The notes under the pieces were generated by a model. The model was not told where the DNA came from. It saw only the letters and a list, made by a program, of their open reading frames with translations, and did not search any database. From a virus (taxonomy: Duplodnaviria; Caudoviricetes), in IMG/VR virus record IMGVR_UViG_3300021255_002485, positions 67,802 to 131,801 of that record: DNA of 64,000 nucleotides; one strand, given 5' to 3'. Within the stretch, counting starts at the first letter, position 1. Each line of letters begins with the position of its first letter. Below, one piece after another: positions 9,605 through 38,854 of this stretch. The position numbers and the translations under genes were made by a program.

Positions 9605-9731
9605 AATCTTTACCCTTGCCTTTCTATATATGTGGGTACACAGTGAAAAGGGGGAATTATTTGCATAGATAGAAGTGAATCTGTGTACCCACTATCACAA
9701 TGGAGGTAATCGCCTTATGGCTAAGACGACA

Positions 9732-9803
9732 CAGGGCATACTGGATTTGAACCAGTGAATACAGCAGTCAAAGTGCTGTGCCTTACCGCTTGGCGAATGC
9801 CCT
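9732..9803 (-). tRNA. tRNA-Gln (UUG)
   Basis: AGGGCAT/ATGCCCT acceptor, GCCAAGCGGTAAGGC D-arm, CTTTGAC anticodon loop, GGTTCAAATCC. Confidence 0.95.
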
Positions 9804-9859
9804 ATTTGCCACACCCTGAGAGAAAGGGAGAATAAAGAAAAAGGTGTGGCTACAAACAA

Positions 9860-15134: not shown

Positions 15135-16142
15135 TTATGTCACCTCATATCTACAATTCTTTACTAAATTCAAAAAACATTCTTTTCCTAAATCCGTAGG
15201 ACTCATTTTTGATCCCCTCGGTAAATACTCTCCTGTTCTGTCGTATATATAAAAAACTTTGTTTCGGTATCTCTGATCTTCAATGAGCAGCTTTTTGGTT
15301 TCATAAGCTACCTCTTCTTCAATTAAATCTTGGTCAAATGCTACCGTTATTTCCACATTTAACATTCTAATATACTTTAATTGTGTCACGCTTAAGTTGT
15401 GACCGCCTATTGCTACTCCACAATTCATATCAAATGACATGCCTTGCATCACTGATTTCTCCGCTTCGAAGATGAATATTCGATTATGTTTAATTATATT
15501 CGTATAGTTAACATCTAATCCATACACTACATTACTTTTTTTATATGGAATGTACATAAACCATCTGTGACTATCATCTGCATTAGGATCATTATTTCGT
15601 CCCTTACATCCTACCAACATATGATTGATATCATATATGGGTATCAATACTGCATCATCTTCATGTGAATATCTAACCCCCATCCTATTCTGAATCTGAT
15701 AAGATACACCATCACGAAAAAATTTGTAACTCAACGAGTTTGCTGGAGGTAGATCCTGTTCATGATAATGCGGCATATCAGACATTGTATTTGGTGAATC
15801 CTTGATTAATTCCCGATAGAAACCACCAAAAGGCCATATTACTTTTACATGAGATACCTGTATATTTAATACTTTTGCCACATATCTGATACTATCTGGG
15901 AAATTACAATGCTTTGTCTCCATAACTAAGGTAAATAGATTCCCTTTAGATCCATGTGAGAAATTCTCATAATGCAAATTATCTTTATAAATGGCTATAG
16001 CTGACGGATTATCACCTCCAATGTTTTGAAAGGAATAGTATTCTCCTTTATCCTTAATATGTTCAAAACCCATTACCTCAAACAAATCTCTTATATACTC
16101 AGGACGAGCGATTATCTTCTCTTGTAACTCCACTACGTCCAT
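15135..16142 (-). CDS. DNA primase (Toprim), SPbeta YorJ-like
   Basis: IFEAEKS and AFD Toprim motifs; position next to the helicase. Confidence 0.82.
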   Translation of the reverse strand: MDVVELQEKIIARPEYIRDLFEVMGFEHIKDKGEYYSFQNIGGDNPSAIAIYKDNLHYENFSHGSKGNLFTLVMETKHCNFPDSIRYVAKVLNIQVSHVKVIWPFGGFYRELIKDSPNTMSDMPHYHEQDLPPANSLSYKFFRDGVSYQIQNRMGVRYSHEDDAVLIPIYDINHMLVGCKGRNNDPNADDSHRWFMYIPYKKSNVVYGLDVNYTNIIKHNRIFIFEAEKSVMQGMSFDMNCGVAIGGHNLSVTQLKYIRMLNVEITVAFDQDLIEEEVAYETKKLLIEDQRYRNKVFYIYDRTGEYLPRGSKMSPTDLGKECFLNLVKNCRYEVT

Positions 16143-16156
16143 AAATCAATCCTCCA

Positions 16157-17290
16157 TCAGTCACCAATCATTTCTACTCCTTCAACCAGTGTTTTTACTA
16201 ATTGTTCGACTTCTTCTACTGTATTTTCCTCATCAAACGTAAATCTCAATGATGCATTGGCTGCTTCCTCACTTAACCCTATGGCTTGCAAAACATGTGA
16301 TGGTTCATGTGATTGTGAATTACAAGCAGATCCAGATGATACACATATATCAAACTGTCCAAGATAAGCTAATAGCTGTTCGCCGGTTACATTATAATTC
16401 TGAAAACAAACATTCACACAGCTCTCCATACTTGTTTGTCCGCCATTATTGAATGTTATCTCCGGCAACGCTAATTTCAACTGAGACTTTAGATTCCAAT
16501 GAATTTCGTGTATCTGTTTTTCTCGTTCTTCTTGTTCTCTGTATGACTTTTCAGCTGCATATGCAAGCCCGACAATTCCAGATACGTTCTCTGTTCCTGC
16601 TATTATTCCTCGTTGTTGAGATCCGCCATAAGTCAGTTGAGCCATAGAATCTTTATATTTTTCTCTTATATATACGAAACCAATTCCTTGTGGACCATGA
16701 AACTTATGACCGACGCAAGATAGAAAATCGATGCATTGAGAATCGACATTAATAGGTAATTTTCCAAAAGCCTGAACAGCATCCGTATGAAAAGGAACAT
16801 CGGCTTTTCTGCATATATGCCCTATCTGTTCAATGTCTTGTATGCTCCCTATTTCATTATTGACATACATAATAGATACAAGATTAGCCACAGAAACGTG
16901 CTGATCAAGTTCTGAAATGTCAATTAATCCATTGATATCTACCGGAAGTTCTATAACTCGAACATCATGTTTATCCTTCAACATATTAAACGTGTTTAAC
17001 ACAGCGTGATGCTCAATAGCAGAAGTAATACCAACTGTACCTCTTCTACACATAGAACGAATAATCCAGTTATCTGCAATACTTCCAGATGCAACAAAAT
17101 ATATTTCGTCTGGATGACAATGGACTAATGCAGCTATTTTCTCTTTAGACTCCATAATAGCTTTACGTGATTTATCTGCAAAAGGATATAAGGCAGACGG
17201 ATTTCCATATTCTTCCACTGCATAAGGCTTCATTATATCCCATACTTCTTCACTTGTTCGCGTTGTTGCATATTTATCAAAATTTATCAT
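16157..17290 (-). CDS. iscS: cysteine desulfurase (IscS/NifS family)
   Basis: YGNPS, EHHAV, HTDAVQ, GHKFHGPQG (PLP lysine), SSGSACNS (catalytic Cys). Confidence 0.95.
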   Translation of the reverse strand: MINFDKYATTRTSEEVWDIMKPYAVEEYGNPSALYPFADKSRKAIMESKEKIAALVHCHPDEIYFVASGSIADNWIIRSMCRRGTVGITSAIEHHAVLNTFNMLKDKHDVRVIELPVDINGLIDISELDQHVSVANLVSIMYVNNEIGSIQDIEQIGHICRKADVPFHTDAVQAFGKLPINVDSQCIDFLSCVGHKFHGPQGIGFVYIREKYKDSMAQLTYGGSQQRGIIAGTENVSGIVGLAYAAEKSYREQEEREKQIHEIHWNLKSQLKLALPEITFNNGGQTSMESCVNVCFQNYNVTGEQLLAYLGQFDICVSSGSACNSQSHEPSHVLQAIGLSEEAANASLRFTFDEENTVEEVEQLVKTLVEGVEMIGD

Positions 17291-17311
17291 TTCTGCTATT
17301 CCTCATTATAT

Positions 17312-17392
17312 AAAAAATGGCTACGGTGTAGGTATTTTACGTATGGAAGGGAATTAAGAAAGTGAGTATATGAAAGGAATTCCGTAGCCATA
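17312..17392 (-). ncRNA. candidate ~80-nt stem-closed sRNA with anti-Shine-Dalgarno loop
   Basis: ATGGCTACGG/CCGTAGCCAT 10-bp stem plus U-tract; starts about 6 nt after a TATGAT -10; CU-rich loop. Confidence 0.55.
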
Positions 17393-17397
17393 TTTAT

Positions 17398-17426
17398 ATC
17401 ATATCTTGCCATTTTAATTTTGTCAA
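17398..17426 (-). promoter_or_regulatory. sigma-A promoter with AATTAAAA spacer motif
   Basis: TTGACA-AAATTAAAATGGCAAGA(17)-TATGAT. Confidence 0.8.
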
Positions 17427-18890
17427 TCATCTGCGAGTATTTACGTGATCATTTAAAATATTACAATATCCTATCTCATACCAACGGTTCCATGCGCTCT
17501 TCCATTCGTATAGAATCTGTCGATCTCCCTCATCATTTCTTGTTTTGTTTATAAAACAAACATAATATGTCTTATTGGGATCAAGCGTGATCTCTTCTTT
17601 TATCTTCTTGTTATCCTTTTTATATTTATAAGGATGACAATCGTACTTTCCACCGGAATACTCGTCTGCCCAAAGCTTGCGCATCATAATAAGTTCACTG
17701 ACCACCTCTTTAATCTGTTTGCTTGAACTAAGGCAGCTTGCATCAAGATATCTTTGATTTGTTGTATACAGAGCAAGCTGAAAAGTACAAGTCAGGGCAA
17801 TATTCAACTTTGAAACTAAATTGAATATCTTACGAGAATTCATTAGTAACTGATACCAAGCATCTCCGTCTACTGCATCATCACCTTTCATTGTATCCCA
17901 TACAATATAACGCACCCCAGAATGAGCGAGTTTCTTAATAAATCTCTCTATAAGGTTAGTATCATTATCAAATATTTTGATAAACTGAATGTTACCGTAT
18001 TTTTCGTCACCAATCTTCTGTGCTTCCTTGATCTTGACCATTTCTTCATCTGTATACTTGCCCAATTTAATCTTCTTACGGGTCAATGACCATGTATCTA
18101 AATCTCTTGTAAGAACATGGGATAACAGCATATTTTGATAAACCTTGATATCCATTTCGTTGCTGATAATAGCAACTTTATTCTCCTTCTGTATCGGTAT
18201 TACCATATTCTCAAAGATCCAACTCGATTTTCCTGTCCCGGAATGCCCGCTAAACAAGAAGACATCCCCTAATGGAGCACCAAGTGTAGTGTAATTGAGC
18301 AAAGGAGCATTTTCTCCGTAACTCAACCCTACATTCTCACCAGACATATTGTTCTTAATGAACTCGTCGGTGATACGAAGTTGTTCTATTTGCGCTTGAT
18401 GCCCCATTTTGAGAGATACTGAACTATTCAGTAACTCGAAAACATCATAAACATCATCGTTTGTAGCGTTATCAAACCTCTCTACATGAGTAAATAATTC
18501 CTCAGACTTCTTTGCCATTTCAGATAAAGAATTCATACGAGCAATCTTATCGTAATAGCCCTCTACATTCTCTGGATCAACAAGATCCTGCAAATCCTTT
18601 ATTGTCTGATATCCACCGTACTCTTCAAACTTCTTCTTAACCTTTTTATTATTAGTCAAAAAAGCTTCAATAGATATATGGTCAAACTTCCTAACTCCCT
18701 GTTCCCACATTCCTCTGCCGAGCATCCAGTAGAATTGTGCATCTTTATCTTGTAATGTTTCGTCTTTACCGACATTAATTTCTTTATAATCTGCAAATAA
18801 ATCGGGATTAGACCAGCAAGCAAATACAAAACATGCTTCAACCTTTTCTCGACCATTATTTATCTTCTTCAACGTTTCTTGTAGATTCAT
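17427..18890 (-). CDS. replicative helicase, DnaB-like (SPbeta YorI-like)
   Basis: Walker A GHSGTGKS, ISNEM, VWDTMK, FQL, KTRN. Confidence 0.88.
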   Translation of the reverse strand: MNLQETLKKINNGREKVEACFVFACWSNPDLFADYKEINVGKDETLQDKDAQFYWMLGRGMWEQGVRKFDHISIEAFLTNNKKVKKKFEEYGGYQTIKDLQDLVDPENVEGYYDKIARMNSLSEMAKKSEELFTHVERFDNATNDDVYDVFELLNSSVSLKMGHQAQIEQLRITDEFIKNNMSGENVGLSYGENAPLLNYTTLGAPLGDVFLFSGHSGTGKSSWIFENMVIPIQKENKVAIISNEMDIKVYQNMLLSHVLTRDLDTWSLTRKKIKLGKYTDEEMVKIKEAQKIGDEKYGNIQFIKIFDNDTNLIERFIKKLAHSGVRYIVWDTMKGDDAVDGDAWYQLLMNSRKIFNLVSKLNIALTCTFQLALYTTNQRYLDASCLSSSKQIKEVVSELIMMRKLWADEYSGGKYDCHPYKYKKDNKKIKEEITLDPNKTYYVCFINKTRNDEGDRQILYEWKSAWNRWYEIGYCNILNDHVNTRR

Positions 18891-19408
18891 TCGCTATCCC
18901 CTAACAATCCAGACACATCATGTCCTTTTCGTTTATGACTGCCAATGTCATAGTCTTCATCACTATGTTGTGCCGCCTTAAATTCAATAACTTTGGCTTG
19001 CTGCTTAAATAATTCTTGCATATGCTGTTTCTCTTTATAGATATCCATTACATTATTATTGATAATAGCAAAAATATACTTGATCTCCGCAGTTTCATTT
19101 ATAAACTGCTTTGTATTTAATGCCCATGCTATATCTTTAGATACCTTCATCATAGTCTCATATATAACGTCATAGCCGAACGGTTCTAATTCTTTGAGTA
19201 ACTTAAAAATATAGGTATTCGGCTTCATTTGAGATTCATACCCCAGGATCTCCATCATAAAATCAATGCACTTCTTACGATTTTCACTATTTTTCACTAT
19301 TTCTTCGTAAGCTGCTTTGGAACTATAATATCTTCCATTCGGAGCCTTATAAGCGTCATTCATGTCGCCTTTAGTTCCCATATCCCATATTTTTACTATC
19401 CTACCCAT
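18887..19408 (-). CDS. hypothetical replication protein (YorH-like position, possible helicase loader)
   Basis: KYIFAII.NN motif; coupled to the helicase gene. Confidence 0.6.
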   Translation of the reverse strand: MGRIVKIWDMGTKGDMNDAYKAPNGRYYSSKAAYEEIVKNSENRKKCIDFMMEILGYESQMKPNTYIFKLLKELEPFGYDVIYETMMKVSKDIAWALNTKQFINETAEIKYIFAIINNNVMDIYKEKQHMQELFKQQAKVIEFKAAQHSDEDYDIGSHKRKGHDVSGLLGDSE

Positions 19409-26437: not shown

Positions 26438-26608
26438 TATTTATCCCTCACTTTCCTGTGGCTCAATCTGTTGAACAGTAATATTTCAAAAGGCTTCTGA
26501 TAGCTTCTTTTTGTTTATCTGTTAATTTTTTAGTTTCCAATAATTTATCTATGACTACTAACTCCTCAAATGAAACATCATGAGGCTCACTTGGTTCTCT
26601 GTATTTGC

Positions 26609-26830
26609 TCATTCCTTATCCTCACTTCCTGACTTATTTAATGGATTGATAGATTCAAGATATTCTGTTAAAGTCATACCAGCTTTTTCTGCTTCTTTAG
26701 TCCACTGCTCTGTCTTTTCTATAATCTTATCTTTGTTAAAAATCATGTATATCCATACAAGCGTTCGTTCTTCCTCTGTCATTTTTTCAAAAATGTTATC
26801 ACCCATATTATTCCTCACTTTCTGCCTCAA
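26609..26830 (-). CDS. small hypothetical protein ending SEDKE
   Basis: ORF with the shared junction tail; probable start MGDNIF. Confidence 0.6.
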   Translation of the reverse strand: MRQKVRNNMGDNIFEKMTEEERTLVWIYMIFNKDKIIEKTEQWTKEAEKAGMTLTEYLESINPLNKSGSEDKE

Positions 26831-27122
26831 AATCAGTAATGTTATTGATAAATTCTATCGCCTTGTCTTTGGCTTCAAGTATTTCTCCGTTTTCATATGA
26901 TTTTATTGCATCTTTAAGTATCTGTATCTGATTTTCGTCATCCATAAATTTCAAAATCTCCTTTCTGTAACATATCATCTACCTGCAATCGAACTTTCAT
27001 CATAAATAATTCGTCCTTTAATTGTTCCATTCTTGCTTGTATTCGTCCTAAGTCTTGATTATTTTGTGACAAACTTTTCATCTCTTCTTCAGTATATCCA
27101 TCATACTTAATCATTTGTTATA

Positions 27123-27428
27123 TCATACCTCCTTGCTTTTGCACTTGTCGATGATCTCTAATACATCAACATTCCAAATTCGCTCAGGTGTGTCCCCGTC
27201 GGTAAGGCTCATTATCTCTGTTCTTATCTTGTCGAGAATAGGCTCTTGCTCTAACAACCGCTTGTAGTCTTTTAGCCATTCTGCTAACTGTCGGTGTTCT
27301 TCGGCACACGTAGAACATTGATTAGCTTCATGTCTCCAATCCAATTTAGAATATTCTAAATCCTGCGCTTCGTTTTCTTTCTCTTCCGCAACTTCCTCTG
27401 CGTGTTTAATTGCTTCATCAAGTTTCAT
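27123..27428 (-). CDS. hypothetical phage protein (LDEAIKHAEE...EHRQLAEWL family)
   Basis: Recognisable accessory family; GAGG RBS. Confidence 0.75.
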   Translation of the reverse strand: MKLDEAIKHAEEVAEEKENEAQDLEYSKLDWRHEANQCSTCAEEHRQLAEWLKDYKRLLEQEPILDKIRTEIMSLTDGDTPERIWNVDVLEIIDKCKSKEV

Positions 27429-27556
27429 TCGCTTACCTCACTTCCTGCCTGTAACGAACAATCTATAGGCTTTCCAAGTATATCTAATACTCCATCAACT
27501 TTGTCAGCAAGTCTCCGGGGTATCTATAATCACCGTTGATTTGTTCATTCCCTCAC

Positions 27557-27745
27557 TCACTTTCTCCAATCTGTAAATCCGATATAGGCATTGTGACCCC
27601 AATGTTCTATCTCTTCGATATCAAATGAAACATTGTTCTTTTCTGTAGATTCTTCATCTTTTCTTGATTCATCTGTGGTAGCCACAAAAACCTCTGCGTT
27701 CATATCCTCTTCAAGCAATCTTGTTATCAGTTCTTTGACTTTCAT
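27557..27745 (-). CDS. small hypothetical protein
   Basis: MKVKELI-type N-terminus. Confidence 0.65.
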   Translation of the reverse strand: MKVKELITRLLEEDMNAEVFVATTDESRKDEESTEKNNVSFDIEEIEHWGHNAYIGFTDWRK

Positions 27746-27748
27746 TTC

Positions 27749-28138
27749 TTATTCTTCCTTTTCTGTTTGTGTTTCATAATCACAATAATTATGATTTGTG
27801 CAATTCTCGCATTTTGTCTTACTACAATCTATCTTTGCGGGATCCTCGCTTTCTATCTGTGGCTCGTCCATAATCTCAACATCTTTTAGCCGTACTCTTT
27901 CAAGTTCTGAATCATCGTCTATCAGAGTGTCACATACGACTATCAGTATTTCTTCGCTGTAATTGTGCCTGACATTCTCATGTGGTATTCTCCCAAATGG
28001 TAGTTCTTTCCATACATTTGAGCGTATACCGTCATTTACGATTCTATAAACAAATCCCTCTTTCATATTAGAAACGTGTTTGATCCGGCATCTTTTACCA
28101 AAAAGCCCTAAAGGGGGCATATTGTACGTGTTACTCAT
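27749..28138 (-). CDS. hypothetical protein
   Basis: 129-aa ORF downstream of a GAGG junction. Confidence 0.65.
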   Translation of the reverse strand: MSNTYNMPPLGLFGKRCRIKHVSNMKEGFVYRIVNDGIRSNVWKELPFGRIPHENVRHNYSEEILIVVCDTLIDDDSELERVRLKDVEIMDEPQIESEDPAKIDCSKTKCENCTNHNYCDYETQTEKEE

Positions 28139-28162
28139 TTTTTATCCTCACTTTCCTGTGGC

Positions 28163-28366
28163 TCAATCATCTTTATCCGCTAATCGGTAAAGCAAATAAG
28201 CTAACCTCTCACACTGTTCAGCTATCTCTTTATAGCCGCCTTTTGGAAGTGGTGTGCCGTTGGCAATAGCTCTCCATATTTTTTCAAAATGGTATGCCGG
28301 ATAATAATTAGGGCTTGATTTTGCACTCTCAATAACATCTTTGGGTATATCAATTACTATCTGCAT
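28163..28366 (-). CDS. small hypothetical protein (MQIVIDI...PLPKG paralog)
   Basis: Shares its N-terminus and PLPKG with the adjacent gene. Confidence 0.65.
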   Translation of the reverse strand: MQIVIDIPKDVIESAKSSPNYYPAYHFEKIWRAIANGTPLPKGGYKEIAEQCERLAYLLYRLADKDD

Positions 28367-28682
28367 TATCGTTCTCCTTATCTGCTTCTATAATTGTTGG
28401 TGCATCGTTAATCATATCTACGGCATAGTCATAACTTGCATATCTCCCACTTTCATATTTATTTCCATAACGGTTCCAATTATCTTTTAGAGCATTAACC
28501 TCGTTTGCAATTTTGTCTGCATCTTTTAATTTTCCGTGTCCTTTAGGAAGTGGTATACCTTTACGGATTGCCTTTGCCATTGCTAATATATCGTCGGTAT
28601 CATAAAAATCTGTGCCGTTATCAAACAATCGTGTGAAAACATTTTCATCAATATCAATTACTATTTGCATCTGTTCCCTCAC
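28350..28682 (-). CDS. hypothetical protein (MQIVIDI...PLPKGHG..DAD...APTIIEAD)
   Basis: Common Firmicutes phage accessory family. Confidence 0.7.
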   Translation of the reverse strand: MREQMQIVIDIDENVFTRLFDNGTDFYDTDDILAMAKAIRKGIPLPKGHGKLKDADKIANEVNALKDNWNRYGNKYESGRYASYDYAVDMINDAPTIIEADKENDNADSN

Positions 28683-28942
28683 TTTCTGCCACTAAACTGC
28701 TTTTTGAAATTATCCTCTCTTTTAACCGACATCATTGCATGGAGCATTTCTTTAGCTGATGTTCGGCTTATATCAAATTGTTCAGAAAGAAAATCTATCC
28801 ACTCAGAATTTGTCAATTTAATATTTGGTTGCATATTGATTAGTGCTTTTAATGCACTGTGGCTTCCTGCAAAGTTGCCATCTGGTAATGCAGGTAGTTT
28901 ATCAATATGTTCTTTAAGTCTATCCGCATCAATCACTCTCAT
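28679..28942 (-). CDS. hypothetical protein (MRxIDAD family)
   Basis: Common accessory N-terminus. Confidence 0.7.
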   Translation of the reverse strand: MRVIDADRLKEHIDKLPALPDGNFAGSHSALKALINMQPNIKLTNSEWIDFLSEQFDISRTSAKEMLHAMMSVKREDNFKKQFSGRK

Positions 28943-29174
28943 CCCTTATCTCACTTTCCTGCTCTATTTCTTCCTGCAAAGTATCTACTCTCTGCAATAG
29001 CAGTTTCTCATACAAGCTACCGACATTATCAAGAAATTCCAGTGCAGCTATAGCGGTAGCAAATGCCTTATCTCTTTCAGGATTGTCACCTATAAGCGAA
29101 TACATTAGAGCACCCTTGCGAAAGCCCTCATTGAGATTTTTTAAATACTTTATGGCTTTTTCTTCTCTGCTCAT
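28929..29174 (-). CDS. small hypothetical protein
   Basis: GAGGAGG RBS. Confidence 0.65.
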   Translation of the reverse strand: MSREEKAIKYLKNLNEGFRKGALMYSLIGDNPERDKAFATAIAALEFLDNVGSLYEKLLLQRVDTLQEEIEQESEIRDESD

Positions 29175-38630: not shown

Positions 38631-38854
38631 CCTGCGATCAACTTCATTGCATTTGAGTGTGCAAGTGACTTAGACTGTGCAGCTAACTTCTCAGTTCTCA
38701 GTATCAAATCTCCGTTGTTTATCATCTGCTTTGCCAAATTTGTGATTATAATACTCTGCTCATTTTCTGTCTGCCTTTCTTCGGGAGTAAGATCATCACG
38801 AAGAGTAACTGTAATTCTGTCGCCTAACACACTCTGAAGTTCTACTAAATTCAT
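38627..38854 (-). CDS. small hypothetical protein (AKQMINN motif) coupled to the HNH gene
   Basis: Start MNLVELQ after GGAGG. Confidence 0.65.
   Translation of the reverse strand: MNLVELQSVLGDRITVTLRDDLTPEERQTENEQSIIITNLAKQMINNGDLILRTEKLAAQSKSLAHSNAMKLIAG

Follow-up and report, generated by a model that had tools for sequence, protein, structure and literature searches.

A covarying hairpin with a G-poor loop forms the predicted 5′ leader of a NifS-like cysteine desulfurase gene in one clade of gut or rumen phages

RESULTS AND DISCUSSION

Our comparison of 12 phage leaders indicated that the hairpin situated between a replicative helicase gene and a nifS-like gene is a real, conserved leader RNA motif, previously undescribed and narrowly distributed (one gut/rumen phage clade). 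As judged from the aligned sequences, the unit conserved across the clade is a 5′ leader and not a terminated small-RNA gene. The explanation that we prefer, and to which we give about an even chance, is that the element serves as a clade-restricted 5′ leader of nifS, combining a capped 5′ end with a pyrimidine docking platform. Positions refer to the window, the whole 64,000-nucleotide stretch of DNA analyzed here, which makes up the right-hand half of a phage genome (IMG/VR) that is 131.8 kb long and bounded by direct terminal repeats.

Locus and anatomy of the element

The genes surrounding the element lie on the minus strand in the order AAA_24 protein, YorH-like protein, DnaB-like replicative helicase, the element, NifS/IscS-like cysteine desulfurase, TOPRIM primase-like protein, and PD-(D/E)XK nuclease. 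The helicase (487 aa; 17427–18890, minus strand) showed a Walker A motif (GTGKS) in the alignment, with PF03796 DnaB_C matched on its orthologues, and the desulfurase served by the leader (377 aa; 16157–17290, minus strand) matched Pfam Aminotran_5 (E = 1.4e-66). The gap between the two genes measured 136 nt, and the helicase stop codon TGA (17429–17427) was overlapped by the −35 box of a promoter. No terminator was found on the minus strand at the helicase–element junction in a terminator scan, and nifS had no promoter besides the one ahead of the hairpin.

A NifS-like cysteine desulfurase gene located immediately 5′ of a primase-like gene was seen in at least three phage clades (NifS 30–76% identical; window 15135–18890, L135, L136, L224–L230, and L168–L180), and in the close clade, the NifS-like gene lay between the helicase and primase genes (window 15135–18890). 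In one relative (L125:1-2375), the gene 5′ of the element codes for an 836-aa protein that matches LAGLIDADG_3 weakly, which suggests a helicase with an intein or homing endonuclease interruption.

The promoter of the element (11/12 matches) comprised a −35 box TTGACA (17421–17426, minus strand), conserved in 12/12 homologues, and, across a 17-nt spacer, a −10 box TATGAT (17398–17403, minus strand), for which the homologues carried TATAAT, TATACT, TATAGT, and similar boxes. A reading of the window made from the sequence alone, hereafter the sequence-only reading, had described a 10-bp closing stem with the transcription start on its 5′ arm and a U-tract behind its 3′ arm, and all of these parts were recovered on the minus strand. 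The 5′ arm AUGGCUACGG (17391–17382) starts 6 nt past the −10 box, the position expected of the +1 nucleotide, so that the predicted start falls at or beside 17391; the 3′ arm CCGUAGCCAU (17326–17317) pairs with it; and U5 (17316–17312), abutting the stem, opens a U/A-rich tail, UUUUUAUAUAAU (17316–17305). The 55-nt loop in between (17381–17327), with a single G, 29% C, and 38% U, is predicted to be single-stranded (unpaired fraction, 0.84) and contained the three tracts previously named in it, UUCCUUUCAU, CUCACUUUCU, and UUCCCUUCCAU. Behind the tail stands the Shine-Dalgarno (SD) sequence of nifS, GAGGAA (17304–17299, minus strand; predicted about half unpaired), 8 nt 5′ of the ATG (17290), with a distance of 26 nt between stem and ATG.

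The 101-nt RNA folded with an energy of −18.15 kcal/mol (z = −3.2); among 200 shuffles, one was equally stable. With uniform base composition, about six perfect 10-bp stems with loops of 25–75 nt are expected in 132 kb, and the stems of at least 9 bp (G-U allowed, at least four G-C pairs) actually found in that length numbered 84, so a lone 10-bp stem is not significant in such a genome. It is the conservation and covariation across the 12 leaders that make the element significant.

Conservation and covariation among relatives

Contigs were obtained for 13 clade NifS proteins, together with one IMG/VR relative and one JGI contig. These yielded 11 distinct full-length leaders from relatives (NifS 56–76% identical, the range of this phage clade, below which a gap extends down to bacterial NifS at 45%), which with the window's own leader made up the set of 12. 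An identical order of parts was observed in 12/12 leaders: a promoter of the TTGACA type whose spacer is conserved (TTGACAnnWTTAAA), a 9- to 15-bp perfect stem beginning 2–11 nt past the −10 box, a long loop, an A/U-rich tail of 6–14 nt, the SD sequence, and the ATG.

Compensatory changes were found at six or more stem positions, and the three inner pairs appeared as ACG, AUG, ACA, GUG, and GCA, each faced by an exactly complementary triplet. Covariation was scored on a promoter-to-ATG alignment of 10 sequences (A3), which replaced a hairpin-only MAFFT alignment (A4) in which the 3′ arms were misaligned. In A3, 97.7% of cells paired versus 85% in shuffles, with 0 of 500 shuffles reaching the observed value; 14 cells had changed on both sides versus 5.4 expected; and sliding the partner by 1–3 columns lowered pairing to 28–44%. 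RNAalifold recovered the identical helix unaided, and the closing pair probability in thermodynamic ensembles was 0.87–1.0 in every leader. The hold-out leader L308, obtained after the model had been built, carried GACC/GGUC in place of GGCU/AGCC and still formed an 11-bp perfect stem; two previously invariant pairs had changed in it (G-C to A-U and U-A to C-G), all of them remaining paired. The sequence-only reading had asked whether homologues keep the stem and vary the loop; the stem covaries among the 12 leaders, and the loop composition is kept in 11/12. The helicases adjacent to the element in the window and in L002 are only 29% identical, which places the intergenic sequence far past neutral saturation.

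A covariance model spanning promoter to ATG (R1) identified one full copy of the element per genome, scoring 92.6 bits in the window phage. Its other matches, at 36 bits or less, represented the promoter class without a hairpin. R1 detected no second full copy when run over the genome, 1.2 Mb of loci from related phages, and a sample of 155 bacterial genomes. A pattern search of viral contigs with GGCTAYGG-N30-60-CCRTAGCC returned at least 117 loci, all of which except L002 were attributable to chance (about 1,700 expected). Neither a search with 3 kb around the element against the "phages" DNA collection nor a protein-pattern scan for the helicase returned a match, the latter because relatives are only 29% identical. 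In distant phages (NifS 30–40% identical), nifS has a promoter of this kind, and its leader is short and lacks a hairpin.

The core stem contained no G-U pair, all of about 110 pairs being Watson-Crick, and such a stem would equally fit a palindrome acting at the DNA level, that is, a single-stranded DNA hairpin used as a priming or recombination signal, or half-sites for a co-evolving dimeric protein, which could also give symmetric changes. The placement of the element between the replicative helicase and primase genes agrees with such a role. We nevertheless regard a DNA-level element as very unlikely, given that the arms differ in sequence between homologues (e.g., L308) and have no visible attC-type core and that the stem occupies a fixed position just past a conserved promoter. 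The attC-like and operator-like versions were further disfavored by the variable arm spacing (36–126 bp), unfit for a dimer on fixed half-sites, and by the strand-specific G-poverty of the sense strand in 11/12 loops.

Composition of the loop

The loops measured 36, 36, 38, 41, 47, 47, 55, 55, 58, 60, and 63 nt, with 126 nt in L134, and their sequences were hard to align across leaders. Pooling of 11 loops gave 3.2% G and 31.2% C, versus 21.6% G and 13.9% C for the sense strand of the loci from which they came, and the G-poor side was always the transcribed strand; the extreme case was L308, with 42% C and 0% G. The predicted unpaired fraction of the loops was 0.68–0.99, except in L134. A run of five or more C residues, typically A-C-Y-CCCCC-U-U, was present in 8/12 loops, and the sense strand of the fetched loci, about 50 kb in total, had no C5 elsewhere. 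The loop of the window phage carried a weaker version of this run, with only UUCCCUUCC and UUCC. The conservation of composition, C5 run, and strand bias argues that the loop is under selection as a single-stranded, pyrimidine-rich, strand-specific segment.

The most distant homologue, L134 (L134:2319-2480), combined a 15-bp closing stem with a 126-nt, G-containing, internally folded loop. This loop held a second copy of CATAGCCT and, from its sequence, looks like the result of an insertion or duplication inside the loop.

A small protein was also considered, encoded either by a 44-aa open reading frame (ORF; 17430–17296), whose ATG overlaps the helicase stop (ATGA) and is thereby coupled to it, or by a leaderless 31-aa ORF starting from the 5′-arm AUG, the codon with which the stem opens in 5/12 leaders. 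Open frames are expected here by chance, since a G-free sequence can hold only the stop UAA. Frame and peptide were not conserved, the homologues having unrelated ORFs of 9–50 codons or none; the differences in loop length were not multiples of 3; and no Pfam match was obtained. The small ORF and the leaderless upstream ORF were rejected for this lack of conservation across homologues, and we consider a coding function extremely improbable. The public nifS call in L133 (L133:837-2057) comprises 406 aa and starts at the 5′-arm AUG of the hairpin, an extension that is an annotation artifact because the loop is stop-free and G-poor.

The same composition could instead serve as a platform on which a protein is loaded, either Rho, as at Rho-utilization (rut) sites, or another pyrimidine-binding protein (S1, cold-shock, or KH), which would make the transcription or translation of nifS conditional on the speed of ribosome loading. 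What defines a rut site is RNA that is C-rich, G-poor, and unstructured. The loops likewise show a C-to-G ratio of about 10, are predicted to be unpaired, and are placed in the untranslated leader directly 5′ of the SD sequence. Their length of 36–63 nt, however, is at the low end, below the approximately 70–80 nt usual for rut sites, and they are enclosed by a helix, a feature foreign to such sites that would hinder threading. Taken together, these features leave protein loading a rather remote explanation of the element.

Leader or self-contained small RNA

The sequence-only reading had proposed a self-contained small RNA or, as a second option, an attenuating leader for the desulfurase gene. 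The first proposal was not supported: with the −35 box overlapping the helicase stop and the ATG lying only 26 nt from the stem, nifS must be transcribed through the element, and a U-run (at least four U within 3 nt of the stem) followed the hairpin in only about 5/12 leaders, being absent from L002, L123, L129, L131, L133, L134, and L308. The second came nearer to the evidence as far as the leader is concerned, but the word "attenuating" found no conserved terminator behind it. The hairpin departs from an intrinsic terminator or attenuator in its 55-nt loop (36–126 nt in relatives) and in its U-tract, which is not conserved, and no intrinsic terminator was called at the hairpin by a consensus scan. 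In this phage, the helix together with U5 may stop some transcripts, giving an RNA of about 80 nt. No Rfam family was matched by cmscan in window 16000–19000 at E ≤ 10 or in the 11 homologous loci at E ≤ 1.

A cis function was considered in which the loop would pair with the SD sequence of its own gene. Duplexes between each loop and its own SD/start region reached −6 to −14 kcal/mol, no better than those of shuffled loops (fraction at least as good, 0.06–0.80) or those formed when SD regions were swapped between homologues. The C5 run had no matching G5 in the own SD sequence, and L002, with the SD GAGGGGGA, was among the loops lacking C5. A co-evolved cis pseudoknot between the loop and its own SD was therefore not supported by shuffles, swaps, or a G5 mirror. 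The predicted accessibility of the SD sequence was about one-half to two-thirds.

The claim that the loop is complementary to ribosome-binding sites (RBSs) used elsewhere in the genome was correct as a description. The junction motif GAAAGTGAG occurred six times on the minus strand between 26.4 and 29.0 kb, versus 0.69 expected, each time 7–11 nt 5′ of an ATG, and the leader of the plus-strand gene termed antA in that reading contained TATGAAAGGA (53384). As targets, the two fared less well, since they amount to 9- to 10-nt matches to SD-like motifs, and the six GAAAGUGAG sites represent one repeated motif. The accompanying idea of a multi-target translational silencer stood in part: the loop is indeed predicted to be single-stranded, and it is pyrimidine-rich and anti-SD-like, but the named targets could not be separated from those of any anti-SD-like tract.

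The RBS motif (C)AG(G)AAAGUGAG recurs at six gene junctions in window 26447–28958 (minus strand), 7–11 nt before the ATG. It is also present at window 5302, as well as near window −8516 and −9089, which lie in the left half of the genome. These sites probably mark a small tandem gene family with related 3′ ends.

These observations bear on a trans-acting riboregulator, in which the hairpin of about 80 nt would be freed by U-tract termination or by processing and its loop would pair with SD regions of phage or host. Promoter, stem, and U5 do form a discrete 80-nt unit in this phage, and the single-stranded tracts of the loop complement common RBS motifs. Among 209 crude translation-initiation regions (TIRs) of this phage, 30 held a perfect complement of at least 8 nt, versus about 13 for mono- or dinucleotide-shuffled loops (p ~0.015–0.02), and perfect complements of at least 9 nt numbered 16 versus 4 for mononucleotide shuffles. 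The C5 motif of the homologues, moreover, resembles the C-rich regions through which RoxS pairs with G-rich targets, and two hairpins of like design flank a tRNA-Gln, whose processing would release them. Against this reading, about 7/12 homologues have no U-run, the loop greatly exceeds in size the loops of functional intrinsic terminators (none being called by the scan), and no match to RsaE, C4, or any Rfam family was obtained. The enrichment in TIRs arises partly from one repeated motif, GAAAGUGAG, which accounts for about eight of the complementary sites, and only this loop shows it, the loops of the other phages having no excess of complements in the TIRs of this genome. The tracts named by the sequence-only reading were not conserved in homologues, and a sliding duplex scan of both genome strands gave a smooth distribution with no outlier. 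We thus consider a trans-acting function unlikely, though the most serious competitor of the leader interpretation.

The duplex scan left no unique trans target standing out in the phage genome, and the loop is best described as "anti-RBS-like," with no particular target established. A 12-nt perfect complement to UAAAAUACCUAC, the 3′ portion of the loop, lies outside the window in an RBS-start spacer (G000:C1:38781-38811, plus strand; position 38806), in the TIR of a structural (tail-like) gene of more than 1,000 aa (rough p 0.01–0.05).

A related version, for which we see little likelihood, is a RoxS/IsrR-like C-rich riboregulator fused ahead of the nifS mRNA and released to occupy G-rich SD sequences of host or phage. 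The loop motif CACCCCCUU (L130 and L133) is one base off the anti-SD tail of 16S rRNA. If this version were true, a takeover of translation would be coupled to the phage supply of sulfur or Fe-S clusters, and the hairpins flanking tRNA-Gln would represent further members of the group, freed by tRNA processing.

Proposed mechanism and comparison with known systems

Returning to the interpretation of the element as a 5′ leader, we propose that a host-sigma-A-type phage promoter would start the RNA at the foot of the 9- to 15-bp helix, which would close a G-depleted, C/U-rich loop of 36–63 nt unable to fold on itself and would be connected by the A/U-rich tail of 6–14 nt to the SD sequence and start codon. 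The predicted 5′ end would be buried by the helix, with 0–5 nt left unpaired, and by analogy with known stabilizers may guard the nifS mRNA from 5′-end-dependent decay of the RNase J1 or RppH type. The open loop would dock a purine- or G-rich RNA, or a pyrimidine-binding protein, beside the RBS and would thereby set the output of NifS. Its likeliest partner would be an SD-type sequence, the downstream SD of the gene itself being one candidate.

For the capping part, the helix was found within 5 nt of the predicted 5′ end in 12/12 leaders, as in a 5′ stem-loop stabilizer. The channel of RNase J1 admits only 4–5 nt of single strand (PMC5419742), and B. subtilis aprE mRNA is stabilized by a 5′ stem-loop together with ribosome binding, according to Hambraeus et al. 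(2002) as listed in PMC3997798. We take the helix to cap and stabilize the nifS mRNA because its 0–5 unpaired nucleotides fit the RNase J1 limit and because of the aprE precedent. The element resembles aprE-type stabilizers in having a helix at or near the predicted 5′ end with the SD sequence close behind, within that same limit. Those stabilizers, however, are compact hairpins, whereas the element encloses a conserved G-free loop of 36–63 nt with a C-run, so stabilization alone does not explain it; a plain tight hairpin would protect the 5′ end equally, and the loop must therefore do something further.

For the docking part, the nearest likeness is with RoxS/RsaE, IsrR, and LhrC, to the extent that the unpaired C- and CU-rich tracts of the loop could pair with G-rich SD sequences. 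In contrast to these RNAs, the element presents a single large loop and not several small hairpins, has no Rfam match and no conserved terminator, and forms the 5′ UTR of nifS, not a free-standing gene. By analogy, it would act most like a Firmicute 5′ stabilizer combined with C-rich pairing motifs of this kind.

The C4 antisense RNA of phages P1 and P7, for which an Rfam family exists, is encoded in the leader of an operon and has loops complementary to ribosome-binding regions. Like C4, the element is a phage RNA in the leader of an operon on which it could act; unlike C4, it had no Rfam C4 match, no specific complementary downstream target, and no RNase P-type processing signal identified. 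Since covariance models went unmatched and the defining terminator or target features were not found, the element is a member of none of the systems compared.

Related promoters and hairpins elsewhere in the genome

The promoter of the element belongs to a class with a conserved spacer, TTGACAnnATTAAAA-N8-TATAAT, of which the phage genome holds about 10 copies: at window 7854, 13909, 17426, 22064, 24728, and 31351 (minus strand), at window 53341 (plus strand), and three in the left half. The nine copies other than that of nifS have short leaders and no hairpin. The TTGACAnnATTAAAA spacer motif also precedes nifS in distant relatives. This class may mark one temporal class of genes or the site of a regulator.

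The tRNA-Gln gene (9731–9804, minus strand) is flanked by two hairpins of like design (9632–9692 and 9808–9850), each with a G+C-rich stem and a G-poor, CU-rich loop. The hairpin 3 nt before the tRNA has the form GCCACACC(UU)...(AG)GGUGUGGC, with UUCUCCCUUUCU in its loop. In the other, 39 nt after the tRNA and immediately preceding the next RBS, a stem of 12 bp closes a loop that contains UUCCCCCUUUU. Pairing of the first hairpin's loop with the RBS of the downstream gene, AGAAAGGCAAGGGUAAAG, was calculated at −18.0 kcal/mol, versus −12.7 ± 2.6 for shuffles (p ~0.03). Both hairpins would be released by tRNA processing.

Implications for phage biology

The reach of the finding is limited to one copy per genome in one phage clade, and the design itself, a G-free loop held by a helix, is unusual and readily testable. 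If the leader interpretation is true, the element would represent a structured RNA motif not described before, which covaries cleanly and is joined to a cysteine desulfurase gene, an auxiliary metabolic gene that large SPbeta-like phages of the gut or rumen carry inside their replication module. It would also provide a phage example for two kinds of Firmicute RNA, 5′-end stabilizers and C-rich pairing motifs, and would illustrate how the dose of a potentially harmful enzyme is set by these phages.
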